A stretch of 64,000 bases of DNA from positions 2,400,001 to 2,464,000 of the forward strand of contig CAWGMQ010000010.1 of NCBI GenBank assembly GCA_963823665.1, in the 5' to 3' direction. Source of the DNA: an uncultured Planctomycetota bacterium. Lineage in GTDB: Bacteria > Planctomycetota > Planctomycetia > Isosphaerales > Isosphaeraceae. Position numbers and translations under genes: made by a program. Shown here piece by piece: positions 24,719 to 61,837 of this stretch. The notes under the pieces are model-generated. The model was not told the origin of the DNA and did no database searches. It was given only the letters and a program-made list of their open reading frames with translations. Numbering within the stretch: position 1 is the stretch's first letter; the number at the start of each line of letters is the position of its first letter.

Positions 24719-24826
24719 AAAAAAAAACGGCGCGGCGCACAACCCGAAGGTGTCCGCCGCGCCGGCTTACTCGTCAACGAGCCCCCCGCCACTGGCGAGT
24801 TGCCCTTCATCTAGTCGTCCGACGAT
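24719..24826 (-). ncRNA. Repeated leader/attenuator element, copy 1 (upstream of hybrid kinase)
   Basis: Sense UCGUCGGACGACUAGAUGAAGGGCAACUCGCCAGUGGCGGGGGGCUCGUUGACGAGUAAGCCGGCGCGG...CCGCGCCG-U9; promoter TTGCTA-N16-CATAAT at 24900-24873. Confidence 0.8.
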
Positions 24827-24998
24827 ATTTTTTTGGGTCGCCTGGGCGTTTGCGTAGGCCCCGGTGGGTCCCATTATGCCGCGCCCCGCAGAAATAGCAA
24901 GGGACATCGCTCGATTCACGATGCCGGGATCATCAACCAGCCGGAGAGAATCAAGGTTCCGGCTGACATCCTGCCGAAACCTTGAATTTCAGCCGGAA

Positions 24999-25841
24999 TC
25001 AGTCTCGCGACCCCCTCCCGAGCAACTTCTTTCCGACGACAGGCAGCCCCAGCAGCACCCACCCGATGAGAGCGAGAGTCATTGTGCCGGGTTCTGGAAC
25101 AGACGCCGGCGAGATGCAGTTGGTGATGGTGTTCGACTGGAGCGTCACAGCACCATTAAGCGCCAGCGCGCTTCCGTCAAGGATAGTTGCGCCGGTGTTC
25201 ATCGTGATGCTCGCGTCCGCGAGAATGTGTCCTGCGAACGCACTGTCTGTATTGAGCGTCGCGGAGCTGCCAACCTGCCAAAACACCGTGCACCCTGCCA
25301 TCGGAACCGAACCGCCGCCGGCGTTCAGCTCTGCCACGACAGCGGAGCTGCTCGCGGTCGTGAGCGTGCTCCCAATCTGGAACACGAATTGGGCATTCGC
25401 GTTGCCCTCGTAGTTGAGGGTGAGCGTGCCCGTCAGTTGCGCCGACGAAGAAAAGAAGTACGTCCCCGGCGTTAACGTGAGCCCGCCAAGATCCATACCA
25501 GTCAAGTTCTGCGTGGGCGCAAGTCCCGCCGCAACGTTGTAGGCAGAGAGCGCATCAGCCTGTGCCTGCATCGCCACGGCATCCGTTATGTGCGTCGTGA
25601 ATGGCGGCGTGATCGTCCCCGGCCCCCCATCGACACTGGCGAAGCCCGTGATCGACGTGCCTGGGTAAAGCCCGACATCTCCGCCGTTGATGACAGTCGG
25701 ACCAGTGTTGGTCACCGTCGATGCACCCAGCACCGCAAAGTTTCCCGAAGTACCGAGGTTAATGCCGCCGCCGGCCATCGCGTGGGGTGAAAAACCGACG
25801 AGTGTCGCGATCGCGATCAGAACCAGGATCTTGCACCTCAT
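24999..25841 (-). CDS. Ice-binding protein (DUF3494) with PEP-CTERM sorting signal
   Basis: Signal peptide; FAVLGASTVTNTGPTVI, DLGGLTLTPGTY, FVFQIGSTLTTA, VFWQVGSSATL; C-terminal VPEP, TM segment and basic tail. Confidence 0.9.
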   Translation of the reverse strand: MRCKILVLIAIATLVGFSPHAMAGGGINLGTSGNFAVLGASTVTNTGPTVINGGDVGLYPGTSITGFASVDGGPGTITPPFTTHITDAVAMQAQADALSAYNVAAGLAPTQNLTGMDLGGLTLTPGTYFFSSSAQLTGTLTLNYEGNANAQFVFQIGSTLTTASSSAVVAELNAGGGSVPMAGCTVFWQVGSSATLNTDSAFAGHILADASITMNTGATILDGSALALNGAVTLQSNTITNCISPASVPEPGTMTLALIGWVLLGLPVVGKKLLGRGSRD

Positions 25842-26183
25842 TTCGGACCTCCTTCGTCGAACGAACGCTTGTCGCCGCCCGTGCTTGAGGATGAATGCGA
25901 TTCAGAATGAAGGCGCCGATCCGCAGGAACCCAAAGGCCGAGTTCGATCGACGGGCGTCCCTGCCTGGATTGCCCTCCGTGCGCCATCCGATACCCACGC
26001 ATCCGCGCCCTAACAAGTCCAGCCTATGACGGAGAGACGCCGGCGGTGTAGCGGGAAAACCCTGGGATGCGCGGGGAAATGACCTGGGATCGAGTCGGGA
26101 AAAGACTGTAAGAGCGGAAGCGACGCGACGATCTCCAATTCGCCGATGGCCGGGTTGGGGAGAGCCGATCCGCGTGCCGGTCG

Positions 26184-26843
26184 CTAGACGTCCGGAGTGA
26201 TCACACCCATCCGGATCGCAAAGCGCACCAGGCCCGCGATGTGGTGGACATCGAGCGCATTCATCAATTGACTCCGATGCGTCTCCACCGCCTTGACGCC
26301 GAGCCCCAGCTTGCGGGCGATCTCTTTGGTTGTGTCCCCTTCCGCGACCAACTGCAGCACCTCGCGCTGGCGCGGCGTGAGGCGCTCGACCGGGCTGGTC
26401 ATCTCGCTGCCGACGCGTTTGACGTAGGCCGCGATGACGTGCTTGGAAATCGCCGAGCAGAGGTATGTTTCGCCCCGGGCAACCGCCCGGATCGCATGCT
26501 CGAGCTCCTGGGGGCTGGTGTTCTTGAGCAGGTAGCCGGCCGCGCCCAGGCGAAGCGCTTGCAGGACGCACTCCTCGTTGCCGTTCATGGAGAGGATGAT
26601 GGTTCGCGTCCGCGGCGAAACTGCGGCCACGCGTGCGGTCGCGTCGAGGCCATTCATCTCCGGCATCATGATGTCCATCAGGACGACGTCGGGGTGATGC
26701 ACCTTACACAGGCGCAGCGAGTCGCGGCCGTCGCCCGCCTCGGCGACGATTTCGACGCCGGCAATGCCTTGCACCAGGGAGCGGATCCCCGCACGGAAGA
26801 GGTCGTGATCGTCGGCGAGCAGGACGCGGATCGGCGTGCTCAC
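26184..26843 (-). CDS. NarL/LuxR family response regulator
   Basis: VLLADDH...DVVLMDIMMP...LTPRQREVLQLVAEG. Confidence 0.92.
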   Translation of the reverse strand: MSTPIRVLLADDHDLFRAGIRSLVQGIAGVEIVAEAGDGRDSLRLCKVHHPDVVLMDIMMPEMNGLDATARVAAVSPRTRTIILSMNGNEECVLQALRLGAAGYLLKNTSPQELEHAIRAVARGETYLCSAISKHVIAAYVKRVGSEMTSPVERLTPRQREVLQLVAEGDTTKEIARKLGLGVKAVETHRSQLMNALDVHHIAGLVRFAIRMGVITPDV

Positions 26844-29104: not shown

Positions 29105-29494
29105 ATGCGAACACAGGGCGAAATCGAAGCCGCCATCTGCGCTGGTATGAGTCGTTTTGAGCAGGAATACATGGGGCGGGGGCCCACGGACATTCGCGCC
29201 CACTTGATCGACGACATTCTTCTCGTCCGCCTCCAGGGTGTCCTGACGGCCGCTGAACAGCATCTGGTCAAGTCCCTTCCGGCCGAGAAGGGGAGAGACT
29301 TGCTCAAGCAAGTGCGCACGCATCTACTCGAAACCGCGCGCCCGCTGATGGAGGCAATGGTCAAGGAAATTACCGGAATCGAGGTCGTCAGCATGCACCA
29401 CGACATCAGCACCGTTAGTGGCGAAGAAGTCGTGCTCTTCACCCTCGCCGAAACACCGCGGGTCCGCGAACCGAAGAGGAATCCGGGCTCCTGA
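29105..29494 (+). CDS. DUF2294 / MpsC-like protein (type A, copy 1)
   Basis: QGEIEAAIC..FEQEYMGRGP..LVRLQGVLTAAE..GRDLLKQVR..SMHHDISTVSGEE. Confidence 0.85.
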   Translation: MRTQGEIEAAICAGMSRFEQEYMGRGPTDIRAHLIDDILLVRLQGVLTAAEQHLVKSLPAEKGRDLLKQVRTHLLETARPLMEAMVKEITGIEVVSMHHDISTVSGEEVVLFTLAETPRVREPKRNPGS

Positions 29495-29497: not shown

Positions 29498-30874
29498 ATG
29501 AACGAGAAGCGATTGTCGTCGGCTGAAAAAATGAACGAGACGGCAACCACTCCCGAGGGCCCGACCTTCCGCTCGGCCAGGCCCGTCTCCTGGGTGATCG
29601 CGGGTGCCCAGATCCTGAACCGCCTCGACCTTGCCTGGCGCAACCGGCTGCGCCTCTCCCAGCCGGATCTGGCGATATTGGGCACGCTCCCTCGCACGGC
29701 GGGAATCATCCTCGCCTCCAATCACGCCGACGAAACGGATATGAAGGCATGCCTCGAGTTATCGCGGCGCTGCCACCGCCGATTTCTCTTCATGATGAAT
29801 CGCGAGGCTTTCGATGAGGCTTCCGGGCTCGCCGGCTGGTGGCTCCAGCGCCTCGGCTCGTTCTCCGTTGAACGAGGCGGCCACAACGACGTCGCAAAAG
29901 ACTTCGCGATCGACGTGGTCAAACGGGCCCAGGACGTGCTCGTCATTTTTCCGGAAGGGGAGATCCACTACCTGAACGATCTGGTGCAGCCGTTCAAAAG
30001 CGGCGCTGTTGAGATTGGAATGCAGGCTGTGGTCAGCCGGCGGCAAACCGATCCCGATTGGACCGCCTACCTCGTCCCGCTGGCCATCAAGTATCGTTAC
30101 CGCCAGGCCATTCAGCCGATCCTTGATGAAAAGACACGCTTGATGGAGCAGCGTCTCTTCCGCAGAGCTCCCTCCGACTCGCTGCCTCACCGCCTGGCAC
30201 GGATCGTCGCCGAGCTTCTCCATCGCCAGGAGATGATCCATGATCTGGCTGCCGACCCGGATCGCCGCGCCGCACTCACCGATCGCGTGCAAGCGGCGCG
30301 GCGGGCGGTGCTGTCGCAGATCGAAGAGGCCCACACCGGCGCGACCGCCGATCCCAGGGCCCAGACGATCGATCGCACCTGGCGCTTGAGCTCCTACCTG
30401 CGGAGCTTGCTGAGACAGGGGGGCGAGTACAGCGACGAAAGCCGCGAAGGCTTCCGCCTCGACCTCGCGGTACTCAAGCGTGTGGCACAGATGGGAAGCT
30501 GGCAGCCAAGCTACGTGGATCTCGACCCGTCGCAGGAACGCCTCGCGGAAATGGTCTTGAAGCTCGAGCGGGAGGTCTACGGCATCAAACGGCCCCGCCA
30601 GCTCGCTAGTCGCGACGTCTTCCTCCGCATCGGCGAGCCGATCGACCTCGGCCAGTTCGTCCCATCTTATCTCGAAAACCCACACGCCACCTGCCATGCA
30701 GTCGCCGAACAGCCTCCGCGCGGTGATCCAGGCCCTGATCAACGACATCGTGACCCCACCGCCAACAAGGTAGCGATCGCTAAAGTGGCGCGACCCCCGA
30801 AGCTTCGCTCTCCGCGTTTAAAAATAAATACTATGATTGTACTTGCATTTCCATATATTTTATATTATCATTGA
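29498..30874 (+). CDS. PlsC-type lysophospholipid acyltransferase (true stop probably ~30773 after a frameshift)
   Basis: SNHADETD (HxxxxD), FSVERG, LVIFPEG, RIGEPI; starts 3 nt after the DUF2294 stop. Confidence 0.85.
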   Translation: MNEKRLSSAEKMNETATTPEGPTFRSARPVSWVIAGAQILNRLDLAWRNRLRLSQPDLAILGTLPRTAGIILASNHADETDMKACLELSRRCHRRFLFMMNREAFDEASGLAGWWLQRLGSFSVERGGHNDVAKDFAIDVVKRAQDVLVIFPEGEIHYLNDLVQPFKSGAVEIGMQAVVSRRQTDPDWTAYLVPLAIKYRYRQAIQPILDEKTRLMEQRLFRRAPSDSLPHRLARIVAELLHRQEMIHDLAADPDRRAALTDRVQAARRAVLSQIEEAHTGATADPRAQTIDRTWRLSSYLRSLLRQGGEYSDESREGFRLDLAVLKRVAQMGSWQPSYVDLDPSQERLAEMVLKLEREVYGIKRPRQLASRDVFLRIGEPIDLGQFVPSYLENPHATCHAVAEQPPRGDPGPDQRHRDPTANKVAIAKVARPPKLRSPRLKINTMIVLAFPYILYYH

Positions 30875-32262: not shown

Positions 32263-32559
32263 TCACAAATGCAAGGCCGGTTTGCGTCCGCTGAACGCTC
32301 GGAGCACGAAGATCAAGACGCAGGCGCCGATAAAGGCCACGAGAATGCTGCCCCAGAACCCGGCCGCCCCCTCGACGAAGAACGAGAGGAGAAGCCCGCC
32401 CAGGAACGAGCCGATCAGGCCGACGATTACGTCGCCCAATACTCCGTAACCGCTCCCCTTCATCATCAAGCCAGCCGACCAGCCGGCGATCAGGCCGACC
32501 ACCAGCCAGGCGATGATCCCTCCCGGTGACAGAACGATTGCGATACTCATGCTACCCAT
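32263..32559 (-). CDS. GlsB/YeaQ/YmgE stress membrane protein
   Basis: IIAWLVVGLIAGW.AG.MMKGSGYGVLGDVIVGLIGSFLGG...VAFIGACVLI. Confidence 0.85.
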   Translation of the reverse strand: MGSMSIAIVLSPGGIIAWLVVGLIAGWSAGLMMKGSGYGVLGDVIVGLIGSFLGGLLLSFFVEGAAGFWGSILVAFIGACVLIFVLRAFSGRKPALHL

Positions 32560-32569
32560 CGTACTCTCC

Positions 32570-32764
32570 TTACTGGAGTGAGAACTCAGTGATCTCTTTA
32601 TCCGCCTGCTCACGCGTGTAGCCGTATTTTCGCTGGAGCAGAACGGAGAGCTGGTCGCTCTGGCCACCGAAAGTCGTCAGGTCGGCGTCGGTCAGCTTGT
32701 CCCACTTTTTCTTCACCATCGCCGTGAACTGCTGCCAGTCGCCGGCGAGTTGATACCACGTCAT
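32570..32764 (-). CDS. CsbD family protein
   Basis: LAGDWQQF...KKKWDKLTDADL...LQRKYGYTREQA. Confidence 0.85.
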   Translation of the reverse strand: MTWYQLAGDWQQFTAMVKKKWDKLTDADLTTFGGQSDQLSVLLQRKYGYTREQADKEITEFSLQ

Positions 32765-32914
32765 GAGCCAACCTCCGAGAAGAGCATTCTCCCAGACTCG
32801 ATCGATCGCCCCGCCAAGGCGGCACAAGGCAGCACGGCCAGCCGCGCGACCGGCTCTCCACGAGCACAAAAATCCGCCAGATCGTGCCACAGCAGCGGTC
32901 CCATCAGAATCCAC

Positions 32915-33079: not shown

Positions 33080-33199
33080 GGTTGACTCCTCTTGATTAGT
33101 GACCGATTCATAACCAGTGACGCACTGCTCATTCCACCGCACTCTCGGAGCCCGGATTCGTCATCCATGCCCGAACTTGATGTACGAGAGGGTCGTCGC

Positions 33200-33309
33200 A
33201 AAAAAAAACCGGCGTGGTCGAACGCCTTCACGCATTCAACCACGCCGGCTTACTCGTCAACGAGCCCCCCGGCTGTCCCGGGTTGCCCTTCATCTAGTCG
33301 TCCGACGAC
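33200..33309 (-). ncRNA. Repeated leader/attenuator element, copy 2 (upstream of DUF3309-csbD-glsB-lapA-hlyIII)
   Basis: GUCGUCGGACGACUAGAUGAAGGGCAACCCGGGACAGCCGGGGGGCUCGUUGACGAGUAAGCCGGCGUGGUUGAAUGC...GCGUUCGACCACGCCGG-U9; promoter TTGCTA-N16-CACAAT at 33396-33369. Confidence 0.85.
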
Positions 33310-33491
33310 ATCTTTTCAGAGTCTACCGGAGCCGGCTGTCTGTTGACATCGGCTCATCTTCATCTCCCATTGTGACGCGCCGAAAGAGAATAGCAAGTGA
33401 ATTCTTTTCTGATTCTTTTCATCTATTATTCTTGCTATTGCTAATAATCATCATATCTGATCTTATTAGCAGTCGAGTCGCCTCCGCTTGC

Positions 33492-33941
33492 CTACTTGGC
33501 GTCGCCCATGGCCCGCACCATCGCCCGGCACGTCTTTTCGCAGGCGGAACACGCCTTGGCACAGTCCTTCATCTCCGGCGCCTCGAATTTGTCGCACTCG
33601 GCCGCGCACGCCTTGCACGCCTCGGCGCATGCGGCGCAGGAATAGACCATGAGCGGGCTGCTGCTGGCCACCATGTCGGCTGACAGGTCGCAGAACCTGG
33701 CACAGTCGGCGACCAGGCGCAAAGCCTTCGCATGCTCCTTCTTGCCAAGGGCCACCTGCTCGCAACAGTGGTGGAAGGTCTCGTTGCACGAGCGAGCGCA
33801 CTGCTGGCAAGCCCTGAGGCAATCCTCGTGCCCCTCGCTGTGATGGTGCTCCTGGCTTTGGGCCCCGGCGGCCCGCCCGGTCACGGCGAGTAAACCGGCA
33901 GTGGTGGTCCCGAGCACGCCCAGTAATTCTCGACGATCCAT
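33492..33941 (-). CDS. Tat-exported four-helix-bundle copper-storage protein (DUF326/Csp-like)
   Basis: MDRRELLG twin-arginine signal; repeated CxxxCxxC motifs. Confidence 0.85.
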   Translation of the reverse strand: MDRRELLGVLGTTTAGLLAVTGRAAGAQSQEHHHSEGHEDCLRACQQCARSCNETFHHCCEQVALGKKEHAKALRLVADCARFCDLSADMVASSSPLMVYSCAACAEACKACAAECDKFEAPEMKDCAKACSACEKTCRAMVRAMGDAK

Positions 33942-34083: not shown

Positions 34084-34569
34084 TCAATCTCCCCGTTTGG
34101 TGACGTTGGGGATCTCCACTCCCAGCGCATTCGCCAGGGCGATCTGGTGATCCTGTTCCTGCACCAGTATGTCCCGGATGTGTTCGGCCAGGGCATATTC
34201 GCCCAGCGCTTCGCACTGACGTACACGCTGCCGATAGTGATGGATCGTTTCGTTCTCGTTATCCAGGTCAAAACGCAGCATGTCTTCTGCCTTTGCCGAG
34301 GTCTTTACCGGCTTCGGCACGGCCAGCGGCATACCACCCAGATAATCGATCTGGCCGGCGATGATCAGGGCGTGCGCCAGTTCTTCCGCGGCGTGCGTCT
34401 CCAGCTCGGCAGCGATGTTCATGTACTCGGCGCCCTTGAGGGTCTGCGAATAGACCACATACGAAATGATGGCCTGGTATTCACGTGCGAGGTCGCCGTT
34501 GAGCAGGGCAACCAGGTCTTCGCGCGTGACGGCCAGGGCGTTGCCGGCATCCGGTTCTTGCTTCGCCAT
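34084..34569 (-). CDS. Ferritin-like / bacterioferritin-like protein
   Basis: LAREYQAIISY, EELAHA, ENETIHHY and QEQDH ferroxidase-type residues. Confidence 0.85.
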   Translation of the reverse strand: MAKQEPDAGNALAVTREDLVALLNGDLAREYQAIISYVVYSQTLKGAEYMNIAAELETHAAEELAHALIIAGQIDYLGGMPLAVPKPVKTSAKAEDMLRFDLDNENETIHHYRQRVRQCEALGEYALAEHIRDILVQEQDHQIALANALGVEIPNVTKRGD

Positions 34570-34622
34570 GTCGATCTCCTGTTGTCTGGGGTGAAACGGA
34601 TTTGATCTCCGACCGATCGGGC

Positions 34623-34832
34623 TCACGTTTGAGCGCCCCGTCGACGGCCCGCCCCGCTTTCTCCGCCGGGCCCGGAGGATTCACTGCGTCTTTGACGTCT
34701 TGAATGCCCTTGTCGATGCTCTTCCCCGCCGGCTCGGCAGGCCCCTTCGACTCACATCCGACGACGGTCGCAAACGCCACGACACAGCACTGCGACCAGG
34801 GCCGCGATCCGATAGTTCCGTTCCTTGCTCAT
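34623..34832 (-). CDS. Small putative lipoprotein (frameshifted)
   Basis: ...VVGCESKGPAEPAGKSIDKGIQDVKDAVNPPGPAEKAGRAVD; boundaries inferred. Confidence 0.45.
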
Positions 34833-34908: not shown

Positions 34909-35322
34909 TCATGCTTGATTAACGGTCCCATTCCAGGTTCCTACGGGTATGCCCGTAGCGAGTAGGAACACCTGCACCACAGTGCCGGTCGTGAATACCT
35001 GCACGACCGTGCCTGTCTTCGTTTCGATCTCTGCCTTGGCCTCGCGCACCTCCACACCGGTGATGCGTTTGATTTCATTCCGCAGCCAATCGGCCGAGTC
35101 GTTGAACAACTGCCGGTGAAACTCCTCCACCTGAGACGCCCCTTCCGGGGTCTGGGCCAGGGCCCTCTCGGCTGGCGACAAGGCGCCATGCAGGGTGATG
35201 ACCAGCGTCTCTTCGCCCAGGACCACCGTCACCGATTTGGGCACGTGGCCCGTTCGCCGTTCCTCGAAAGCCGCCGCTGCCTCGGCGACCTGTTGCGCCA
35301 TAGTCAGATTGGGCTTCTCCAT
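34909..35322 (-). CDS. DUF2294 / MpsC-like protein (divergent type B)
   Basis: AQQVAEAAAAFEERRTGHVPKSVTVVL...LVITLHGALSPAERALA...IKRITGVEV. Confidence 0.8.
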   Translation of the reverse strand: MEKPNLTMAQQVAEAAAAFEERRTGHVPKSVTVVLGEETLVITLHGALSPAERALAQTPEGASQVEEFHRQLFNDSADWLRNEIKRITGVEVREAKAEIETKTGTVVQVFTTGTVVQVFLLATGIPVGTWNGTVNQA

Positions 35323-35367
35323 TCGCTGCCTCCCCGGCGGAACCGACCGCTCGTGTCGCCATGTGCC

Positions 35368-35478
35368 AAAAAAAAACCGGCGCGGTGGAACACCCCGAGG
35401 GTATTCGACCACGCCGGCTTACTCGTCAACGGGCCTCCCGACACAGCCGGGTTGCCCTTAATCTAGTCGTCCGACGAC
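35368..35478 (-). ncRNA. Repeated leader/attenuator element, copy 3 (upstream of type B DUF2294)
   Basis: Same consensus ending in hairpin + U9; promoter TTGCTA-N17-AACAAT at 35570-35542. Confidence 0.85.
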
Positions 35479-35701
35479 CTCCGCCCAAGTTTTTATCGGA
35501 GCCAAGGACCGGTTTTCACACGGGACCAGGCTCACCCCCTCATTGTTTCAAGCCTGGCTGGAAATAGCAAGAGCATTGTCTTTCTTTTTGGTATGATGAT
35601 TCCTCAACAGCTTGGAAGACGGACGATCCGGAGTCGGTTGCCATCGGGCACAGTCCCAGCGCGTGGCTGCCGGCAGGGCGCGGGCCGCCCTCGAGGTCAA
35701 C

Positions 35702-36091
35702 ATGAAGTCTCAGGGCGAAATCGAAGCCGCAATCTGCGATGGGATCACGCGCTTCGAGCAGGAATACATGGGACGCGGGCCCAAGGACATTCGTGCCCAC
35801 TTGATCGATGATCTCCTCGTGGTCCGCCTTCAGGGCGTCTTGACTGCGGCCGAGCAGCATCTGGTCAAGACACTCCCGGCCGAAAAGGGCAGAGACCTGC
35901 TCAAGCAAGTGCGCACCCATCTCCTCGAGACAGCCCGGCCGCTGCTGGAGGCAATGATCAAGGATATCACGGGCGTGAACATTGTGAGTCTGCACCACGA
36001 CATCAGCACGATGACCGGTGAAGAAGTTTTGATCTTCACGCTCGCCGATCCACCGTCGGTCCGCGAATCCCGCAAAAAGTCGGGCTCTTGA
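35702..36091 (+). CDS. DUF2294 / MpsC-like protein (type A, copy 2)
   Basis: MKSQGEIEAAICDGITRFEQEYMGRGPKDIRAHL..., very similar to 29105..29494. Confidence 0.85.
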   Translation: MKSQGEIEAAICDGITRFEQEYMGRGPKDIRAHLIDDLLVVRLQGVLTAAEQHLVKTLPAEKGRDLLKQVRTHLLETARPLLEAMIKDITGVNIVSLHHDISTMTGEEVLIFTLADPPSVRESRKKSGS

Positions 36092-36181: not shown

Positions 36182-36463
36182 TCATGGCGGCTGACCCGCG
36201 AGCTGGCGCCGGATCTGGAGTGGCTCGCGCCAGCAGGCCAGGTCTCTTTCCCCTTCTCCGGTCAGGAGCCATCCGGGCGCCACGCCGGTGACATTGATGA
36301 AACGAAGGATCGCCAAACCGGGGATCGTCACGCCGGATTCGTAACTGGCCCAGGTTGCAGGCAGGAGCCCGAGGTCCGCCGCCAGAAGAGAAGCACCATG
36401 TTCGCCATACATCGCGAGGCGAACCTCACGCAGACGGCGGGCGAGGGCTATACTCCGTTTCAT
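36182..36463 (-). CDS. Small XRE-like HTH protein
   Basis: LARRLREVR...[19 protein letters not shown]...WLLTGEG. Confidence 0.7.
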
Positions 36464-36741: not shown

Positions 36742-36854
36742 AAAAAGAAAAAGCCGATGCGGTGGAATACCCCCAAAAGGTACTCGACCACATCGGCCTA
36801 CTGGTCAACGAGCCCCCCGGCTATCCCGGGTTGCCCCTCGCCTAGTCGTCCGAG
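36742..36854 (-). ncRNA. Repeated leader/attenuator element, copy 4 (upstream of small ORF 36460..36657 and the HTH gene)
   Basis: Terminator arms GCCGAUGUGG/CCGCAUCGGC show compensatory changes; promoter TTGCTT-N16-CACAAT at 36943-36916. Confidence 0.8.
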
Positions 36855-36989
36855 CATATCCAGCAAGTCGTAACAGTGCGAGTTACACGCAAGTATTCGA
36901 CTTACTGTGGCGTTCATTGTGCCAAAGAACACTGGAAAAGCAAGCGAGTAGTACCGGGTAGGTCGCATCATCGATCGGGGACGGCTCGA

Positions 36990-37910: not shown

Positions 37911-38009
37911 GAGAAGTATCCTCCTCTGAGCTCGGCGATATTTCGGCCGGCTCGTCGATCAAGTCGATATCTCGCGCGAGGCAACCATTCGATGGCACCA
38001 CAAGAAAAC

Positions 38010-44650: not shown

Positions 44651-44690
44651 CGGTTCCTCCCGGATGAGCTTGATCATCCGTTACCAACGC

Positions 44691-50626: not shown

Positions 50627-51058
50627 TCATGATCCCCGTCTCGCGGTCTTGCGTGCACGGCGCGCCGGCGGAGACACCGTCGCAACGGACGGCTCGGTCT
50701 CAGTCCGGCGTGAGGACCGGTGCACTGAGGCCGGTCGACCATTCTCGGGTGCTTTTTCACACAGCTCTTCGACCTTCTGGCGCGCGGCCGCAGTGCCGTC
50801 GATCAACCCTTGGGCCGCGGCGTTGTTCGCGGGGACGGAACGAGCCAGCAAAATCGTGGGAAAGACCACCCCGTACGCGGTGGCGTAACAGGTGGTGTAA
50901 ACCAATCGGCTGACGAAGCGCCCGGTCGCCGGCCATGTCCGGGCTGCCGCCTCGCGCGCGTCCGCTGCCCCGCGCCGGGCGGCTTGCATGGCGAGTTTCA
51001 CGGTTCTGGTGGTCGCGTCGATCGGGTCGTGGCTCGAGATCGCTTGGGGATGAGACAT
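50627..51058 (-). CDS. Conserved-looking hypothetical protein
   Basis: AARRGAADAREAA...RLVYTTCYATAYGVVFP...PANNAAAQGLIDG. Confidence 0.6.
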   Translation of the reverse strand: MSHPQAISSHDPIDATTRTVKLAMQAARRGAADAREAAARTWPATGRFVSRLVYTTCYATAYGVVFPTILLARSVPANNAAAQGLIDGTAAARQKVEELCEKAPENGRPASVHRSSRRTETEPSVATVSPPARRARKTARRGS

Positions 51059-51121
51059 GGGTGTTGGCCTCGTTGAAACAATGTCAAACGATCCGCCGCC
51101 GGCTGCATGCCGAGATCGTTG

Positions 51122-51231
51122 AAAAAAAAAGCCGGCGTGGTCGAAGACCAAGAGGTCCGCGACCACGCCGGCTTACCCGTCGACAGGCGACCCGAAATAC
51201 CCGGGCCGCCCTTCGTCCAGTCATCCGACAA
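51122..51231 (-). ncRNA. Repeated leader/attenuator element, copy 9
   Basis: Very similar to copy 8 including flanks; promoter TTGCTT-N18-TACCAT at 51324-51295. Confidence 0.85.
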
Positions 51232-51445
51232 ATCAAATCAGTTCCGGGAGCCCACATACGGTTACCCTATGTCGGCTCCCGTCAAACATACGTCATGGTA
51301 CGCGCGGCGGCGAGAGAAAAGCAAGCCTATTCGCTCTGCACCCGGAAAGTGCGTCCCTGAGTTCTTGGGCAAGGAAAGCCCCGGCTCGACAGGAAGAAAT
51401 GTCCGCGCACTGAGGGCTCGAGGGCACGTCGGCCGGCTCCTGGCG

Positions 51446-53269: not shown

Positions 53270-53647
53270 ATGAAAACACGGGGCGAGATCGAAGCCGCCG
53301 TTTGCGAACTGATGAGACGCTTCCAACTGGAGTACATGGGCCGTGGACCCAGGGACATTCACGCCCACCTGATCGGTGATTTCCTTGTGGTCCGCCTCCA
53401 GGGCGTGTTGACCGCGGCTGAACAGCAGCTCGTCAAGTCGATCCCGTCCGCGAACGGGAGGGACCTGCTCAAACAAGTACGCACTCATCTGATCGAAACG
53501 GCTCGGCCGGTCATGGAAGCAATGATCCAGGAGGTCACAGGCGTCAAGGTGTTGAGCCTGCACCACGACATCAGCACGGTGACCGGAGAAGAGGTCGTGC
53601 TCTTCACTCTGGCCAGGTTGCCTGATTTTAGGCAGCCGAACAAATGA
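53270..53647 (+). CDS. DUF2294 / MpsC-like protein (type A, copy 3)
   Basis: MKTRGEIEAAVC...EYMGRGP...GRDLLKQVR...SLHHDISTVTGEE. Confidence 0.85.
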   Translation: MKTRGEIEAAVCELMRRFQLEYMGRGPRDIHAHLIGDFLVVRLQGVLTAAEQQLVKSIPSANGRDLLKQVRTHLIETARPVMEAMIQEVTGVKVLSLHHDISTVTGEEVVLFTLARLPDFRQPNK

Positions 53648-53674: not shown

Positions 53675-55633
53675 GTGGAAGCGAACGATGACAACCGCGC
53701 ACACCAACTGGAACTCGCCCTTGCGTACGCAGAGAATATCGTCGCGACTTTGCGAGAGCCATTTGTCGTTCTCGATAACAGCCTGCGGGTTCGCTCGGCC
53801 AACGCGGCCTTCTACCGGAACTTTCATGCCTCGAATCCAGAGACGGAGGGCCGCTTCGTCTACGACTTGGGCAACGGTCAGTGGAACATCCCCCAACTGC
53901 GGACGCTACTCACACAAGTCCTGAGCAACAGCCATCCCGTCGAAGATTTCGAGGTTGAACACGACTTCCCCGCTCTCGGGCGAAGGAACATGCTGCTCAA
54001 CGCCCGCAGATTCCCTCCAGAGAGCAACGACCCGCATTTGGTCCTTCTTGCCATCGAGGACATTACCGACCGCAGGCGGGCCGCAGCCGCCATGGAGCAC
54101 TCCGAAGTCCGGTACCGGCGGTTGTTCGAGATGGCCAAGGACGGCATTTTGATCCTGGACGCCAACACGGGAAAGGTGATCGACGCCAACCCCTTCATGA
54201 CGGCCTTGCTGGGCTACTCGCACGACGATTTCTTGGGCAAGGAACTGTGGGAGATCGGCCTGTTCCGAGACATCAACGAGAGCCGGGCCGTTTACCGCGA
54301 ACTGCAAGAGAAGGGCTACGTCCGCTACGAGAATCTGCCGCTGGAAAACACAAGCGGGCACAAGGTCGAGGTCGAGTTCGTCAGCAACGTCTATGGAGAG
54401 AACAACCACCAGGTCGTTCAATGCAACATCCGCGACATCACCGAACGCAGCCGCCTTCAGCGACTGACGCAAGAGCAAGCGCAGGCACTCGCCGATTTGG
54501 ACCGTCGCAAGGATGAGTTCCTGGCGATGCTCGGCCATGAACTTCGAAACCCGCTTGCCCCCATCCTCAATGCCGTTCTTCTCTTGCGCCTGCACAGCAC
54601 CCGGAATCGTCTACAGGGCATCGAGAACCCGGTACTTCAGCAATCCGCCGGCATCATTGAGCGGCAGGTGGGGCAACTGACACGGATCGTTGATGAATTG
54701 CTCGAAGTCTCTCGCATCACCACGGGCAGGATTCAGCTTCGCCAAGAATCGATCGCCGTCGGCGTCGTGGCGGAAAATGCGGTGGCGACGGTCCGCTCGC
54801 TGATCGAACAACGTAAGCATAAACTGACGGTGTCGCTGCCGACGCAAGCGATCTGGGTGCACGCGGACGCGGCCCGGTTGGAACAGGTCGTCGTGAACCT
54901 CCTCACCAATGCCGCCAAGTACACGGACCGAGGCGGTCACGTCTGGTTGACTTTGCAACAAGAAGGCGCGGACGCGGTGCTGCGTGTGCGGGATACGGGC
55001 GTCGGCATCGCCCCCGAAATACTGCCCCGCATCTTCGACCTGTTCACGCAGGCAGAACGGTCCCTGGATCGCGCGCAAGGCGGGTTGGGTATCGGACTGG
55101 CTCTGGTGCAGCGCCTCGTGGAAATGCACGGCGGATCGGTGGCGGCTTCCAGCACATTGGGACAAGGCAGCGAGTTCGTCGTGCGTCTGCCGGTGACGGC
55201 GCCCCCCCGGCCGCGGGCGTCATCGCCGCCCGCCAAAACGGCCCAGCCGATCGCAACATCCTTGCGAGTGTTGGTGGTGGATGACAACGTGGATACGGTG
55301 ACGACTCTGGCGTTGCTGGCGAAAGAATCCGGCTGCGACGTTCGTACGGCGTACGATGGCTCGACGGTTCTGGAAGCGGCCCTGGATTACCGGCCGGACG
55401 TCGTGCTGTTGGACATCGGATTGCCGGGCCTCAATGGCTATGAGGTAGTGAAGCAGCTCCGTCAGCAGCCCGCTCTTCAGAACATCGTGGTCGTCGCCAT
55501 GACTGGGTACGGCGGGGAGGGTGACGTTCAGCGCTCGTTTGCGGCGGGCTTCGATCACCACTTGGTCAAACCGGGCGATTTCGGGAAAGTGCTGCAAATC
55601 TTGGCGACCGTCTCGGAGTTGCCGGCACGATGA
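53675..55633 (+). CDS. PAS-PAS hybrid histidine kinase
   Basis: Two PAS domains, DEFLAMLGHELRNPL, NLLTNAAKY, GLGIGL, REC VLVVDDN...DIGLP...LVKP. Confidence 0.92.
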   Translation: MEANDDNRAHQLELALAYAENIVATLREPFVVLDNSLRVRSANAAFYRNFHASNPETEGRFVYDLGNGQWNIPQLRTLLTQVLSNSHPVEDFEVEHDFPALGRRNMLLNARRFPPESNDPHLVLLAIEDITDRRRAAAAMEHSEVRYRRLFEMAKDGILILDANTGKVIDANPFMTALLGYSHDDFLGKELWEIGLFRDINESRAVYRELQEKGYVRYENLPLENTSGHKVEVEFVSNVYGENNHQVVQCNIRDITERSRLQRLTQEQAQALADLDRRKDEFLAMLGHELRNPLAPILNAVLLLRLHSTRNRLQGIENPVLQQSAGIIERQVGQLTRIVDELLEVSRITTGRIQLRQESIAVGVVAENAVATVRSLIEQRKHKLTVSLPTQAIWVHADAARLEQVVVNLLTNAAKYTDRGGHVWLTLQQEGADAVLRVRDTGVGIAPEILPRIFDLFTQAERSLDRAQGGLGIGLALVQRLVEMHGGSVAASSTLGQGSEFVVRLPVTAPPRPRASSPPAKTAQPIATSLRVLVVDDNVDTVTTLALLAKESGCDVRTAYDGSTVLEAALDYRPDVVLLDIGLPGLNGYEVVKQLRQQPALQNIVVVAMTGYGGEGDVQRSFAAGFDHHLVKPGDFGKVLQILATVSELPAR

Positions 55634-55842
55634 GAATCCGCGAGAATTCGAGGATACCTGCCAGCCAGCGCCAAGGGGCCCGAACCTCGGGCGGCGTCCC
55701 GCGAGACGTTCTGGTCTCAATAATACCGGTCGCAACACCGGGGACTTGTGTCCTCTTGCCGTAGCGTGCATACTGATGAATGTTCTGCGGGATTCGACAA
55801 GAGACAAGCGCACGTCGGCTCCCGGAAATGACATGATTTGAT

Positions 55843-55952
55843 TTGTCGGATGACTAGACGAAGGGCGGCCGGGCTATTCCGGGTCGTCTGTCGAAGAGTA
55901 AGCCGGCGTGGTCGAGGACCTGAGGGTTTTCGACCACGCCGGCTCTTTTTTT
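55843..55952 (+). ncRNA. Repeated leader/attenuator element, copy 10 (upstream of HPr)
   Basis: TTGTCGGATGACTAGACGAAGGGCGGCCGGG...GAGTAAGCCGGCGTGGTCGA...TCGACCACGCCGGCTCTTTTTTT; weaker promoter match TTGTGT-N17-CATACT at 55746-55774. Confidence 0.85.
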
Positions 55953-56063
55953 CACTCGCGTTTACTCGGCTCGACCCGAGCGCCTTAAGAGGCCAGAATG
56001 CGACGATCCAATTCTGAATCCTCATCCGATCCATCATCCGAAAACGGCTGCGTTCATCCGGGA

Positions 56064-56372
56064 ATGAGCCACGAGATGCCAGTCGCCCGTCGGCAAGTCG
56101 AAATTACGAACCGTCTCGGTCTGCACCTGCGGGCCGCCGATCAGTTCGTCAGGCTCGCTCGAGGGTTCCAGTGTGAGATTCGGGTGCATTACCAGGGCAA
56201 CGCATGCAACGGCAAAAGCATCCTTGAGCTGATGACTTTAGCCGCCGAGTGCGGCGCACGTCTCGACCTGGAGGCGTGCGGGCCCGACGCGGTTGCCGCC
56301 GTCGAGGCTCTGGCCGTTGTGGTCGCGGCTGGATTCTACCAGGACGAGAACGAAAGAGAGCAATCCGCATGA
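56064..56372 (+). CDS. ptsH: HPr family phosphocarrier protein
   Basis: ITNRLGLHLRAA (His15 region) and NGKSILELMTLAA (Ser46 region). Confidence 0.85.
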   Translation: MSHEMPVARRQVEITNRLGLHLRAADQFVRLARGFQCEIRVHYQGNACNGKSILELMTLAAECGARLDLEACGPDAVAAVEALAVVVAAGFYQDENEREQSA

Positions 56373-56518
56373 CGTCCGTGCAACGATGATCTCGCAGATC
56401 CGTGGAACAAGAGATTACAAAAGAATTCACTTGATTTTATCCGACCGCGCGGGACAATGAACATAATCACGGGGCACGCGTGGATTGACATTCGGCTCCG
56501 ATGAAAAGGTGAATCGAA

Positions 56519-56631
56519 GTTGTCGGACGACTAGACAAAGGGCAACCCGGCTTAGTCCGGGGGGCTCGTTCTTGAGTAAGCCGGCGTGGCCGAACCCCTG
56601 TGGGTGTTTGGCCACGCCGGCTTTTTTATTT
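56519..56631 (+). ncRNA. Repeated leader/attenuator element, copy 11 (upstream of DUF1328-yihY)
   Basis: GTTGTCGGACGACTAGACAAAGGGCAACCCGGCTTAGTCCGGGGGGCTCG...GAGTAAGCCGGCGTGGCCGAA...TTTGGCCACGCCGGCTTTTTT; promoter TTGATT-N16-GACAAT at 56431-56458. Confidence 0.85.
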
Positions 56632-56748
56632 CGCTTGCCGAGGCGTTCCAGGCCGCGGACTCGGTGAGGTCGCTCACCATTCGTGGAGCCTGGGCGTGGG
56701 CCCCGCTCGCGATGAGCACCAGTCTTTTTTATGGAAAGAGAGAATCCC

Positions 56749-56919
56749 ATGCTCGGTTGGGCCATAACGTTCGCGATCCTCGCACTGCTCGCCGGCCTCT
56801 TCGGTTTCATGGCTCTTGAAGGCAGCCTCGCCTTGATCGCCAAGGTTTTGCTGTTCGTTTTCCTGGCCTTTTTCGTGATCTCGCTGATCGTTGGCAGGAG
56901 GCGCGGGCTCACTGTTTGA
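56749..56919 (+). CDS. DUF1328 family small membrane protein
   Basis: MLGWAITFAILALLAGLFGF...IAKVLLFVFLAFFVISLI. Confidence 0.85.
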   Translation: MLGWAITFAILALLAGLFGFMALEGSLALIAKVLLFVFLAFFVISLIVGRRRGLTV

Positions 56920-57116: not shown

Positions 57117-58034
57117 ATGCAGATCCGCCTCCGCCCGCCCACACCGATGAGTCTCGGCGGCCTCTCCCCGCGCCAGCTCGCCGTGGGAGTCTGGAAACGG
57201 TTGGCGGAACACGACGCCATGACCTGGGCGGCTGCCGTTGGCTTCTACGCGATGCTCGCCGTGGTCCCGTTCCTGGCTCTCGTCCTGGTCGTCGTGGTCT
57301 TGCGACTGCCCGACCTCTCCGGCGCAGGCCACCGGACGATCGGCCTCGGTAACCTCACGGTCGACCAGCTCGAAGCGACGCTCAAGTCATTCTTCCCGAA
57401 CGAAGCCTATGTCCTGGTCAGGGACCAGATCGCACGCATTCAGAGTGAGCCTCCCTTCGCTCTGCTTTCCCTGGGCGGGGCGATCGCGCTCTGGAGTGCG
57501 TCCAGCCTGTTCCTCGTCGTCATCGACGCGCTGAACCGGACCTACGGGGTCAAGGAGACGCGATCGTTCGTGAAGCTCCGGCTCACCGCATTCGCGATGA
57601 CGCTCCTCCAGGCGGCCTGCCTGCTCTCTTCGCTCGTGGCGATCGTCGCCTGGCCGCAGATCCTCCGCGCAATCGGTTTGGACCCGAGCGGTGCCGTCGC
57701 ATGGCTGGCGGCGGCCCTCCGATGGTCTGCCGTCTTCCTGATGGTGCTCCTGAGTTTCGCGCTGACATTCCATGTCGGCCCCGACGTTCGCCATCCCTGG
57801 GCCTGGGTCACGCCGGGAAGCCTGGCAGGAACCATCGCCTTCCTCGTCTTCTGCATCCTTTTCCGTGTCTACGTCCAGAACTTCGGCCGCTACAACCAGT
57901 CGCTCGGAGCGCTGGGTGGGGTCATCGTGCTGCTGTCCTGGTTCTGGGTCGTCGCCCTGGTGCTCCTGGCCGCGGCCGAAATGGATCGAGCGATCGAGGC
58001 TGGCTCCCCGACCGCCAGGTCCCCCGCCGGATGA
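57117..58034 (+). CDS. YihY/BrkB family membrane protein
   Basis: AAAVGFYAMLAVVP, ALWSAS, ALNRTYGVKETR, VTPGS, YN..LGALGGVIVLL.W. Confidence 0.88.
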   Translation: MQIRLRPPTPMSLGGLSPRQLAVGVWKRLAEHDAMTWAAAVGFYAMLAVVPFLALVLVVVVLRLPDLSGAGHRTIGLGNLTVDQLEATLKSFFPNEAYVLVRDQIARIQSEPPFALLSLGGAIALWSASSLFLVVIDALNRTYGVKETRSFVKLRLTAFAMTLLQAACLLSSLVAIVAWPQILRAIGLDPSGAVAWLAAALRWSAVFLMVLLSFALTFHVGPDVRHPWAWVTPGSLAGTIAFLVFCILFRVYVQNFGRYNQSLGALGGVIVLLSWFWVVALVLLAAAEMDRAIEAGSPTARSPAG

Positions 58035-60341: not shown

Positions 60342-60342
60342 T

Positions 60343-61701
60343 TCAGTTTTCTCCTCTTTTTGAATCGGCCTTTCCTACCATACTATGTTTATTTTTCTTC
60401 TTGAAGACGTCATCCAACCAGTCGAATTCGATCTGGTGCTTGAGGCTTGGGTTATTGAGGTTGCAGTGAATCTCGCCGCCATCCACAAAGCGAATCACAC
60501 GCTCCGTCTTCGGACAGGTCAGCTTCGCGTAGAACTTATGACCTTCACTCGCCACCAACGGCCCTTCGCCCTCGGAGATTATGTACAGCAGGGGGCACGT
60601 AATCTTTCCCTCAAGCCCGGCCAGACTATAACCGCCGAGGCTGTCACAAAAGGCGGCGAGGGACTGCCCGGTCATACCGCATCGGTCCTTGAAGTCCGTC
60701 ACAAAGAGCTTGTTGAGCGGCTCGGAGAGGTCAAGCTTGCTCTCAAGGTCTTTGCCATAGGGCTCATTCGGGTCGAGCTTCACCATGGCCATGAGGATGG
60801 GCTTGCACTCCGGTAGCAGCGAATTAGCGATCACGGCTTTGATGCGATTCTCGTAGGCAGCAGCGCGCGGCGCGAAGTATCCGCCAAAGCTGTGCCCCGA
60901 CAGCGCAAGTCTCTCAGGATCGACATCTTTGCGGGACAGAACATAATCAACCGCGTATCGGGTTGGGACTTCCCAGTCCGGACGATAGGTCAAAGTTGAA
61001 TCCAAGGCGTAAGCGCCGACTTGACCGGGACCTTCCCACAAAAATGCGTTATAGCCACGGCGGACCGCCGCGGCGCCGCCACCCCAGTAATACAGCTCCT
61101 CGCAAGTGGTATCGCCGCCCCCGATGATCATCACGGTCGGACGCGGGCCGCCGATTGCAGAAGCGCGCATGAAATACCCCGGCAACGTCTTCCCGTTTTC
61201 GTAGGGAATGCTGACAGGCTCGATCTGCGGGTCGAACAGCGCCGCAGCTCGCACGAAGCATGATCGGTGGCGCTGGTACATTTCGAGCTGTCTCGGGTCT
61301 TTGCTGTCGAGGTAGAATTGGCCGGTTTTCCAATAGGTGGATGCTCGCAGGAATGCCTCACGAGCACTGACAATATGACCGCCGCTCAGGCAGTCGTGGG
61401 CAATCCGCTCGACCCTCTCTGCGGTTTCACGCCATGCGACATTCCAGCCCTCTAAATCTCCGTCCATGATCCGCCGCGCCGTCGAATACACCTCACCGAC
61501 GGCTCCGCCATCGCCATAGGCGCCAGTGCACATGGCTCTGACGACTTGGTAGTCGAAGTTCGACTTGAAGACTCTTGGCATTCCCGGCGAGTTGCTAAAA
61601 ATGGCTCCGGTTGCCGCCTTCGGTTTTGCCGAGAACACCGTACCTGTCGCTCCACGTTGAACGCTCGTTGATTTAGGATCCGGAAGGGGAATCGTCTTCA
61701 T
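60343..61701 (-). CDS. Alpha/beta hydrolase (paralogue)
   Basis: GGGDT, WEGPGQ, GHSFGG, APRAAAY, HCN. Confidence 0.85.
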   Translation of the reverse strand: MKTIPLPDPKSTSVQRGATGTVFSAKPKAATGAIFSNSPGMPRVFKSNFDYQVVRAMCTGAYGDGGAVGEVYSTARRIMDGDLEGWNVAWRETAERVERIAHDCLSGGHIVSAREAFLRASTYWKTGQFYLDSKDPRQLEMYQRHRSCFVRAAALFDPQIEPVSIPYENGKTLPGYFMRASAIGGPRPTVMIIGGGDTTCEELYYWGGGAAAVRRGYNAFLWEGPGQVGAYALDSTLTYRPDWEVPTRYAVDYVLSRKDVDPERLALSGHSFGGYFAPRAAAYENRIKAVIANSLLPECKPILMAMVKLDPNEPYGKDLESKLDLSEPLNKLFVTDFKDRCGMTGQSLAAFCDSLGGYSLAGLEGKITCPLLYIISEGEGPLVASEGHKFYAKLTCPKTERVIRFVDGGEIHCNLNNPSLKHQIEFDWLDDVFKKKNKHSMVGKADSKRGEN

Positions 61702-61729
61702 TTCAATACCTTCCTTTGCCAAAGGGAAC

Positions 61730-61837
61730 AAAAAAACCGACGCGATTGAACACCTGGAAGGTGTTCAATCACGTCGGCTTACTCTGCAACTAGCCACCCG
61801 GCGAACCGGGGTGCAATTTATTTAGTCGTCCGACGAC
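61730..61837 (-). ncRNA. Repeated leader/attenuator element, copy 12 (upstream of hydrolase-hydrolase-SnoaL)
   Basis: GUCGUCGGACGACUAAAU...CCCGGUUCGCCGGG...GAGUAAGCCGACGUGAUUGAACACC...GGUGUUCAAUCGCGUCGG-U7; promoter TTGCTG-N17-TACGAT at 61913-61885. Confidence 0.8.

Follow-up and report, generated by a model that had tools for sequence, protein, structure and literature searches.

In the ribonucleic antiterminator (RAT) leaders controlled by BglG, SacY and LicT in E. coli and Bacillus, an imperfect hairpin with internal loops overlaps the base of a terminator by a few nucleotides, the terminator prevails unless a factor stabilises the hairpin, and the regulator gene is often in the operon. 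Here we describe a leader RNA family with a comparable layout, found in a 64,000-nt stretch of the genome of an uncultured Planctomycetota bacterium of the family Isosphaeraceae (assembly GCA_963823665.1, contig CAWGMQ010000010.1, positions 2,400,001 to 2,464,000; hereafter the window). In each copy, a sigma-70-like promoter and a variable 5' hairpin precede a conserved core of 112 nt and a strong intrinsic terminator (120 nt upstream of each copy were read). The family is real and uncatalogued, and it marks a regulon of the general-stress type, for which the leaders probably act as a common on/off gate. The kind of mechanism is known; the RNA itself, its regulon-wide use and its gene partners are undescribed in the sources searched.

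The resemblance to the RAT systems includes HPr genes, which are part of the regulon here. However, there is no sequence likeness, the rod formed by this leader is far longer (~100 nt), and the leader occurs in 10–30 copies per genome. The CAT domain (PF03123) had no match in this genome, which is 91.9% complete, and was detected in 4 of 14 control genomes. In the trp leader with TRAP (B. subtilis) and in hut with HutP, a large antiterminator likewise overlaps the terminator slightly and a small oligomeric protein decides the outcome. One of the genes treated below, DUF2294-K, has a hutP-like placement in some genomes with few leader copies (G081, G117 and G106), i.e., immediately ahead of the leader and on its strand. 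Unlike those two systems, our leader has no triplet repeats, its RNA alone favours the terminator by ~11 kcal/mol, and the DUF2294 fold has no clear likeness to either protein.

ON riboswitches (e.g., adenine pbuE and guanidine-I) have a conserved folded domain with a P1 helix whose 3' strand is common with the terminator, as is predicted for our leader, and they too serve many unlinked genes. They differ in that our leader has no Rfam match and its stems are conserved in sequence as well as its loops. In ANTAR-regulated leaders, two short hairpins with loops of six nucleotides follow each other and the second overlaps the terminator, whereas the consensus here is a single long rod whose apical loop (~5 nt) varies, and it lacks a second small hairpin. 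Two ANTAR proteins are encoded in the genome, on contigs 1 and 8, away from the leader loci.

A CsrA paralogue also recurs beside this leader. Like csrA with fliW, its gene shares an operon with that of a small acidic protein, and the invariant GGA in the leader's box can sit in a 4-nt hairpin loop, making it a candidate CsrA site. Unlike in known CsrA systems, the paralogue scores under the NCBIfam cut-offs and has an insertion after its first strand, and there is one GGA per RNA; Csr/Rsm decoy small RNAs (sRNAs) carry several loop GGAs each. According to PMC13443453, CsrA proteins recognise GGA in hairpin loops, are common in Planctomycetota and have FliW as their antagonist in Bacillus; in a single known instance, the Rho-dependent pgaA leader, CsrA promotes termination by remodelling the leader.

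The gene set resembles the sigma-B regulon of Bacillus and the EcfG/PhyR regulon of Alphaproteobacteria, with CsbD, YflT, Dps, BON, DUF1328, KaiC, PP2C phosphatases and hybrid kinases. However, those regulons are defined by an alternative-sigma promoter, whereas here an RNA gate with a terminator lies behind a sigma-70-like promoter. The literature searched held no description of how Planctomycetota organise their general stress response and no paper on this RNA. The YjbJ motif described in PMC11109978 is another RNA, from streptococci. An RNA gate that is easily recognised marks the regulon genome by genome and thereby gives a ready list of stress genes, and the leader offers a compact terminator switch together with three named candidate operators.

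Copies, distribution and downstream genes

The element was first noticed in a reading of the letters of the window (hereafter the sequence-only reading), which listed twelve copies of ~110 nt, all intergenic and co-oriented with the next gene. A 20-nt box pattern with up to 3 mismatches gave 11 sites in the window against 0.04 expected (0 of 100 shuffles reached 11), and the twelfth copy, 61727-61838, was identified by reading the sequence directly. We built a covariance model, R1, on the 12 window copies (alignment A2). Scanned over the window, it gives exactly 12 full-length sense matches (97–118 bits), and their coordinates agree within a few bases with those first listed. All 12 are indeed intergenic and in the same direction as the next open reading frame (ORF), and the sense consensus first proposed agrees with alignments A1 and A2. 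The length of ~110 nt describes the core well but not the whole unit, since the promoter and 5' hairpin had been missed. The copies are clustered within 37 kb, and positions 1-22000 contain none by either the box pattern or R1. The twelve leader units and the genes that follow them are listed here, with R1 scores in bits.

24717-24900, minus strand: leader unit c1 (core and terminator 24717-24827; 97 bits; -35 TTGCTA at 24900); next gene, ORF 23381-24742, minus strand, a hybrid histidine kinase (Pfam HisKA/HATPase/REC)
33199-33396, minus strand: leader unit c2 (core 33199-33310; 116.4 bits; promoter TTGCTA-N16-CACAAT); next genes, minus strand, small and of the CsbD/GlsB type, CsbD-like 32570-32914 (under the Pfam cut-off) and Transgly_assoc 32263-32667 (Pfam)
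35367-35570, minus strand: leader unit c3 (core 35367-35479; 116.8 bits; promoter-like site); next genes, minus strand, the core operon of DUF2294-L 34912-35322, Dps/ferritin 34084-34626 and Csp1-like 33492-33941 (Pfam, NCBIfam)
36744-36943, minus strand: leader unit c4 (core 36744-36858; 106.2 bits; promoter-like site; box variant CUCGGA); next ORF 36182-36463, minus strand, 93 aa, no Pfam or NCBIfam match
38008-38211, minus strand: leader unit c5 (core 38008-38119; 115 bits; promoter-like site); next gene 36990-37910, minus strand, a fatty-acid desaturase (Pfam)
39722-39921, minus strand: leader unit c6 (core 39722-39835; 107.3 bits; promoter-like site); next gene 38358-39674, minus strand, a hybrid histidine kinase (Pfam)
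44692-44894, minus strand: leader unit c7 (core 44692-44803; 118.3 bits; promoter TTGCTA-N16-GACAAT; box CGUCGG 44795-44800; partner CCGGCG 44736-44741, where the 5' arm of the terminator has its base); next genes, minus strand, an operon of methyltransferase 43937-44677, CN hydrolase (nitrilase) 43074-43940 and MMPL 40045-42693 (Pfam)
48108-48313, minus strand: leader unit c8 (core 48108-48219; 115.8 bits; promoter TTGCTT-N18-TATCAT); next genes, minus strand, YiiX/C92-like 46928-48055 and PAS-SpoIIE 45190-47205 (Pfam, NCBIfam)
51122-51324, minus strand: leader unit c9 (core 51122-51233; 112.2 bits; promoter-like site); next ORF 50627-51166, minus strand, no Pfam or NCBIfam match
55746-55952, plus strand: leader unit c10 (core 55841-55952; 111.2 bits; weak promoter match); next gene 55998-56372, plus strand, an HPr-like protein (Pfam PTS-HPr)
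56431-56630, plus strand: leader unit c11 (core 56518-56630; 113.6 bits; promoter-like site); next genes, plus strand, DUF1328 56731-56916 and BrkB/YihY 57117-58034 (Pfam)
61727-61913, minus strand: leader unit c12 (core 61727-61838; 105.4 bits; promoter-like site); next ORF 60343-61731, minus strand, 462 aa, with no assigned family, its ATG ~30 nt past the U tract

Rfam 15 gave no match at gathering thresholds in the 64-kb window, which bears out the earlier failure to place the RNA in a known family. Run in E-value mode on five loci, it gave just 4 weak hairpin matches, far under gathering. The covariance-model search of Planctomycetota that the sequence-only reading had proposed, with downstream genes tabulated, found 26 sense copies in the 16.5 Mb of this genome. 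Across the same family the RNA is present in 51 of 121 genomes and 24 of 53 genera, with up to ~30 matches per genome, weak opposite-strand matches included. In an even sample of the rest of the phylum the distribution is patchy (5 of 150 genomes positive).

A pattern scan over one genome per species gave at least 127 stretches, 80 of which were retrieved, and 57 of these pass R1 at 76 bits or more. The labels of the 57 are Isosphaeraceae, Gemmataceae, Pirellulales, Planctomycetaceae, Tepidisphaeraceae and Phycisphaerae, and three of the loci belong to a bin that carries the label delta proteobacterium. The remaining 23 (Streptomyces, Hymenobacter and others) fail R1, and their number is of the order that chance matches to the pattern would give.

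Pfam was searched with 137 of the 139 downstream ORFs, the two omitted being spurious opposite-strand matches. MpsC/DUF2294 is the commonest family (28 ORFs), followed by Band_7 (8), CsbD (7), YflT (6), DUF3309 and DUF1328 (5 each), Transgly_assoc, HisKA kinases and HPr (4 each), BON and Methyltransferase (3 each), and KaiC, AMP-binding and SnoaL-like (2 each). A further 14 families occur once each, including Dps, a desaturase and an ice-binding-like protein, and ~40 ORFs have no family. Such gene content is that of general stress regulons in other phyla. The element is regulon-wide, as first proposed, with many unlinked genes behind it.

Structure of the leader and its predicted antiterminator

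The promoter-like site has a -35 box TTGCT(A/T), a spacer of 16–18 nt and, as its -10 box, (G/C)ACAAT or TA(C/T)CAT, which ends 45–66 nt before the core in the window copies. In a set of 159 copies drawn from many genomes, such a site is present in 122, its -10 end usually 58–63 nt from the core; 75 copies have a 16-nt spacer and 30 an 18-nt one. Promoter and core are separated by a hairpin, P0, and an A-rich linker. Most window copies have P0, and it differs by subfamily (e.g., GGAGCC...GGCUCC or GCCUGC...GCAGGC). It seems dispensable for the core because some copies have none; L080, L071, L047 and L050 are among these, with the promoter ~15–35 nt ahead of the box. In one leader subfamily, an A/T-rich block near AAAAGAATTCAC abuts the -35 box on its upstream side across genomes (e.g., window positions 33397-33415, minus strand, and 56412-56430, plus strand), and it may be a transcription-factor site or an UP element. 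A leader peptide was considered and dropped, as the short AUG frames in the 5' part differ between subfamilies.

In the core, the box (C/U)GUCGGAYGACU is followed by a long irregular hairpin (P2), AAG and the terminator. P2 is built from the helices ACU/AGU, YRA/UYG, GGGC/GCYC and CCCGG/CCGGG, split by conserved purine-rich internal loops, and the resulting rod is rich in A.G and A.A mismatches. On 147 copies (alignment A5, which was fitted to the model and is therefore biased in favour of structure), 96.4% of cells are paired, compared with 37–47% for shifted partners; double changes occur in 26 of 36 pairs, and 0 of 500 shuffles match the observed values. The covarying pairs cited in the sequence-only reading are real and extend to this larger set. 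Across orders, conservation of the unpaired and loop nucleotides exceeds 90%. The 'GUARG linker' of that reading is something else: it comprises the 5' end of the terminator stem (AAG:CUU) and the base of P2. An internal promoter was proposed for a conserved TTGAC in P2 and dropped; its columns covary with the 5' strand of P2, so the constraint acts on the RNA. A variant leader with the box GUUGGA and the arm AACCCGACG occurs at L237, L238 and L247 (genomes G052, G107 and G041), where it heads an operon in which DUF2294-L comes after a small basic ORF and a CsbD-like gene.

The terminator is a 19–21-bp stem followed by 6–9 U. In A5 its stem has 21 pairs, 96% paired, with double changes in 16. 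The mean free energy (dG) of the hairpin is -36.1 kcal/mol, and at least 6 U lie within 9 nt past the stem in 137 of 138 copies. The leader thus ends in a canonical intrinsic terminator, and its first description as a structured 5' leader with such a terminator was correct.

Orientation ties the leader to the gene that follows, as had been claimed. Within 600 nt downstream, the best coding region shares the strand of the element in 139 of 158 copies (2 further copies were too short for scoring) and is on the opposite strand in 19, several of which have small genes. Upstream, the best coding region is on the same strand in 89 of 152 copies and on the opposite strand in 63, which led us to reject the 3' untranslated region (UTR) of the upstream gene as an explanation; the upstream neighbours of c3 and c8 are divergent. 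Start codons with Shine-Dalgarno sequences follow ~30–70 nt past the U tract, so closely that there is no space for another promoter. Other genomes also have back-to-back leader pairs on opposite strands, ~320–500 nt apart, each reading into its own gene (L091:11233-11778, L074:1009-1612, L044:1501-2111 and L093:1253-1862).

The first six bases of the box, (C/U)GUCGG, repeat the six bases with which the 3' arm of the terminator ends. The box can therefore pair with the base of the 5' arm, in a helix which we call P1. Nascent RNA was modelled by cutting each of 138 sequences just ahead of the terminator 3' arm, and in these folds the 5' arm pairs with box columns 5–9 in 102–106 sequences and with column 4 in 75. 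P1 would join (C/U)GUCGG to CCGRCG (columns 4–9 with 98–103) and close the P2 rod. On A5, 96.1% of its cells are standard pairs, compared with 11–47% when slid. U6 of P1 is opposite A in 72 distinct rows and G in 71, and the arm position that faces it covaries inside the terminator (A-U 74, G-C 65). Compensated double changes in P1 occur in the divergent copies L239 (U7-A100, U4-A103) and L240 (A5-U102).

Two other antiterminators fared less well. The pairing CGACUA:UGGUCG, suggested speculatively in the sequence-only reading, was rejected: the UGGUCG segment of the arm varies freely and changes with no change in the box (e.g., copies 1 and 12), and the conserved complementarity is (C/U)GUCGG:CCGRCG. 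A longer antiterminator via the A-rich linker was also discarded, as cognate duplexes (-4.40 kcal/mol) are no better than non-cognate ones (-4.80 kcal/mol).

The free-energy difference between the antiterminated and the terminated fold (ddG) is +11.0 +/- 3.0 kcal/mol. Because P1 costs ~11 kcal/mol, the RNA alone should terminate and a factor would be required to hold the rod. The default-OFF state proposed earlier is consistent with these energetics. The box has one more option, a small hairpin (GUC-GGAY-GAC) that is exclusive with both P1 and the base of P2 and forms in terminated-state folds. The GGA of the box is wholly unpaired in 36 of 138 full-length minimum-energy folds.

The core locus

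One arrangement recurs around the leader: a divergent DUF2294-K gene, then the leader, DUF2294-L and a CsrA paralogue. DUF2294-L (34912-35322, minus strand; Pfam MpsC) is the commonest gene behind the leader across genomes, and its orthologues are 50–88% identical. It was found in 47 of 121 family genomes, comprising 46 of the 51 RNA-positive ones and 1 of the 70 RNA-negative ones (there the gene is at a contig edge). Together with the 28 of 137 downstream ORFs, these counts substantiate the link between leader and DUF2294 that had been raised earlier. In low-copy genomes, DUF2294-L is directly in the leader operon (G081, G117 and G119) or follows a small ORF and csbD (G052, G107 and G041).

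DUF2294-K is 24–29% identical to DUF2294-L, and three copies of it lie in the window.

35702-36088 (ORF 35612-36091), plus strand: DUF2294-K (Pfam MpsC, 4.7e-38), divergent from c3, its start 223 nt from the core
53270-53647, plus strand: DUF2294-K paralogue without a leader (Pfam), 70% identical to the K gene at 35702
29105-29494, plus strand: DUF2294-K paralogue without a leader (Pfam), 78% identical to the K gene at 35702

In other genomes, spanning several orders, more than 20 loci have this divergent start at ~210–225 nt from the core. DUF2294-K was found in 48 of 121 family genomes (45 of 51 RNA-positive and 3 of 70 RNA-negative, the latter copies being 49–54% identical), and in 7 of 9 low-copy genomes no more than 300 nt separate it from the RNA. 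Copies with 61% identity or more in the phylum sample are confined to RNA-positive genomes (3 of 5). The paralogue at 53270-53647 stands 28 nt ahead of a PAS hybrid histidine kinase (53675-55633, plus strand) and the one at 29105-29494 stands 4 nt ahead of an acyltransferase (29498-30874, plus strand), which suggests a signalling role. The layout of K gene and kinase resembles that of small sensor proteins encoded beside their kinases.

The CsrA paralogue occurs in 30 of 121 family genomes, all of them RNA-positive and mostly with high match counts. Of its 40 genes, 35 are within 250 nt downstream of DUF2294-L, and three more are directly behind a leader. It directly follows DUF2294-L in Isosphaeraceae, Gemmataceae, Pirellulales and other bins. 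The protein retains the N-terminal MLVLSRK and the VHR motif, and it scores 54.6 bits, below the NCBIfam CsrA cut-off of 70.1. This genome has 10 CsrA genes, one of which is behind a leader and a remnant of DUF2294-L. That locus (L032, G000:C5:1202483-1205594) consists of a leader, the C-terminal remnant and an intact CsrA paralogue, so the usual leader, DUF2294-L and CsrA operon has been broken up here, the intact DUF2294-L being the one behind c3.

DUF2294/MpsC/YbcI is a very large family (more than 8000 matches; 1697 representative clusters), and the literature searched held no paper that gives it a function. The structural model of DUF2294-K (m5227ebb9f488) has a predicted local distance difference test (pLDDT) score of 94.7 and that of DUF2294-L a score of 68. 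Both gave weak fold matches, within noise, to the small sensor-like folds Bet3/TRAPP (TPC6), YslB and H-NOX, with Foldseek E-values of 0.015 or higher. In a VIA comparison with DUF2294-L, the KH-type RNA binders Era, RbfA and KhpB came at Z 4.7–5.2, which is within noise. We take the order of helices and strands in DUF2294 to be like that of a type-II KH domain, as a lead only. A sequence search of the PDB with DUF2294-L gave nothing beyond 1tua (E 0.12). The predicted complex of DUF2294-L with a dimer of the CsrA paralogue scored 0.00 and gave no verdict, which is evidence neither way.

Proposed mechanism and rival explanations

We give an even chance to the reading that each copy is a cis-acting, default-OFF transcription-attenuation leader with the P1-P2 rod as antiterminator, probably operated by a protein. 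The sigma-70-type promoter would start an RNA of ~165 nt, in which the variable 5' hairpin would be followed by the box and P2 rod and then by the 19–21-bp terminator with its 6–9 U. P1 would close the P2 rod and so keep the bottom 6–9 nt of the terminator stem unavailable. Transcription would halt unless a factor locked the P1-P2 rod, and read-through would express the gene ~30–70 nt further on. One type of gate would thus stand ahead of 10–30 general-stress-type operons per genome. What the data show are the copies and their structure, the promoter-like sites and terminators, the distribution and the linked genes; we infer the antiterminator role of P1, the default-OFF state, and the identity of the effector and its direction of action.

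The operator is most likely a protein of the core locus, i.e., a DUF2294 protein and/or the CsrA paralogue encoded after DUF2294-L. DUF2294-K is encoded beside the leader and outside its control, DUF2294-L behind it. By binding the GGA of the box, the CsrA paralogue could prevent P1 from forming, which would give negative feedback. We rank such an effector as more likely than a small ligand. The sequence-only reading had taken the nearly invariant segments as a contact for a ligand or protein; nothing points to a small molecule, and a protein effector is at least as likely given the DUF2294 and CsrA neighbours. If DUF2294 or the CsrA paralogue is the effector, an orphan family would gain a function or CsrA a new mode of action. 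A bolder version, which we regard as doubtful, is that a module of sensor-like DUF2294, its leader-controlled paralogue and a specialised CsrA runs the general stress response of soil Planctomycetota by termination, with DUF2294 locking the rods of 10–30 identical gates and CsrA binding the GGA of the box and re-arming the terminators. DUF2294 would then be a new RNA-binding fold, and the paralogue would be the first CsrA to decide an intrinsic terminator and the first with a partner other than FliW.

Several results count against a P1 switch worked by these proteins. Covariation in P1 is not above chance (246 of 500 shuffles reach the observed paired share), because its columns hardly vary. 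The 25 divergent copies include ~8 with a mismatch at position 5 and 2 with one at position 6, and the part of P1 kept in all 25 is only the 4-bp UCGG/CCGR. A second GGA for a CsrA dimer is not enriched in the 55 nt upstream (1.18 observed, 1.16 expected), and the CsrA paralogue was not found with this query in 21 of the 51 RNA-positive genomes. DUF2294-L is acidic (pI, the isoelectric point, ~5–6), its best VIA match (Z 7.1) is within noise, and fold comparison of the K and L models found no RNA-binding fold. The family genomes are kin, and counts of co-occurrence among them overstate independence. The conserved internal loops of P2 would suit a ligand pocket equally well. Expression data are weak evidence in favour: one soil metatranscriptome has 154 contigs that match at 80% or more, 34 of them at one position, piling up on the c7 region (44680-44815). 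Their summed depth is 235–1380 over the core and 7–100 over the gene behind, but the conserved sequence recruits many loci and organisms, and DNA is possible in such libraries. They show that the element is present in an RNA library and are uninformative on termination, ends or levels.

The strongest competitor is an ON riboswitch, in which a stress metabolite, ion or second messenger binds the loops at the P1/P2 junction and locks P1, DUF2294 and CsrA being mere members of the regulon. We find this somewhat unlikely. An aptamer-like domain closed by a P1 whose 3' strand is common with the terminator is what such a switch would have, as are loops conserved across orders at more than 90%, and second-messenger riboswitches also occur in many copies per genome. 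The lack of an RNA-binding fold in the DUF2294 models fits it too. However, the regulated genes have no common pathway or transporter that would name a ligand, the stems are conserved in sequence as well, which is commoner in protein sites, and the fixed place of DUF2294-K beside the leader, outside its control, looks like that of a regulator gene. If a ligand is the effector, this would be a new riboswitch class governing an entire stress regulon.

That the terminated RNAs of ~165 nt are themselves the product, i.e., a family of trans-acting sRNAs such as decoys titrating the CsrA paralogue, with read-through incidental, strikes us as improbable. Each copy does have its own promoter and strong terminator, the invariant GGA can occupy the loop of GUC-GGAY-GAC, a leader precedes one of the genome's 10 CsrA paralogues, and the soil RNA library contains many contigs with the element. 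However, in 139 of 158 copies the next gene has the same orientation and its start is a few tens of nucleotides away, with no room for a promoter, and the one conserved GGA per RNA is unlike the CsrB/Rsm RNAs. The variable 5' part is mostly hairpin and is absent in some copies. Hfq (PF17209) gave 0 matches in this 91.9%-complete genome and was detected in 5 of 14 control genomes, which is a further point against sRNAs.

We think it quite improbable that the leader is a protein-operated attenuator whose effector is not encoded at the locus, such as a cold-shock protein or another chaperone of RNA, a factor of the NusG type or the effect of temperature itself on the mismatched rod. The desaturase, ice-binding-like protein and CsbD-type genes of the regulon would suit it, as would a rod full of A.G and A.A mismatches, and the ties of the core-locus proteins to the RNA are indirect. 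It would, however, leave the tight and positionally fixed link with DUF2294 unexplained. A mobile or selfish repeat (a miniature inverted-repeat transposable element, MITE, or a repetitive extragenic palindromic sequence, REP), or a terminator or insulator module spread by duplication with no switching, is very improbable and already largely refuted: the copies are multiple, clustered (12 in 37 kb) and highly similar to each other, but there are merely 26 in 16.5 Mb, their orientation is far from the random one expected of a MITE or REP (139 of 158 with the next gene), they hold the same position ahead of orthologous genes in different families and orders, they show compensatory changes, the upstream gene is opposite in 63 of 152, which excludes a 3' UTR terminator, and the flanks read show no apparent terminal repeats or target duplications, for which no systematic search was made.

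Two further observations concern the genes around the leaders. The island contains an ice-binding-like protein (24999-25841, minus strand) and the Csp1-like protein behind c3 (33492-33941, minus strand), a four-helix-bundle copper-storage protein. A GH15 glucoamylase/glucodextranase (48510-50575, plus strand) appears to be split into two ORFs that differ in frame, with Glucodextran_N at 48510-49304 and Glyco_hydro_15 at 49337-50575; possible reasons are a frameshift, decay to a pseudogene or a fault in the assembly.

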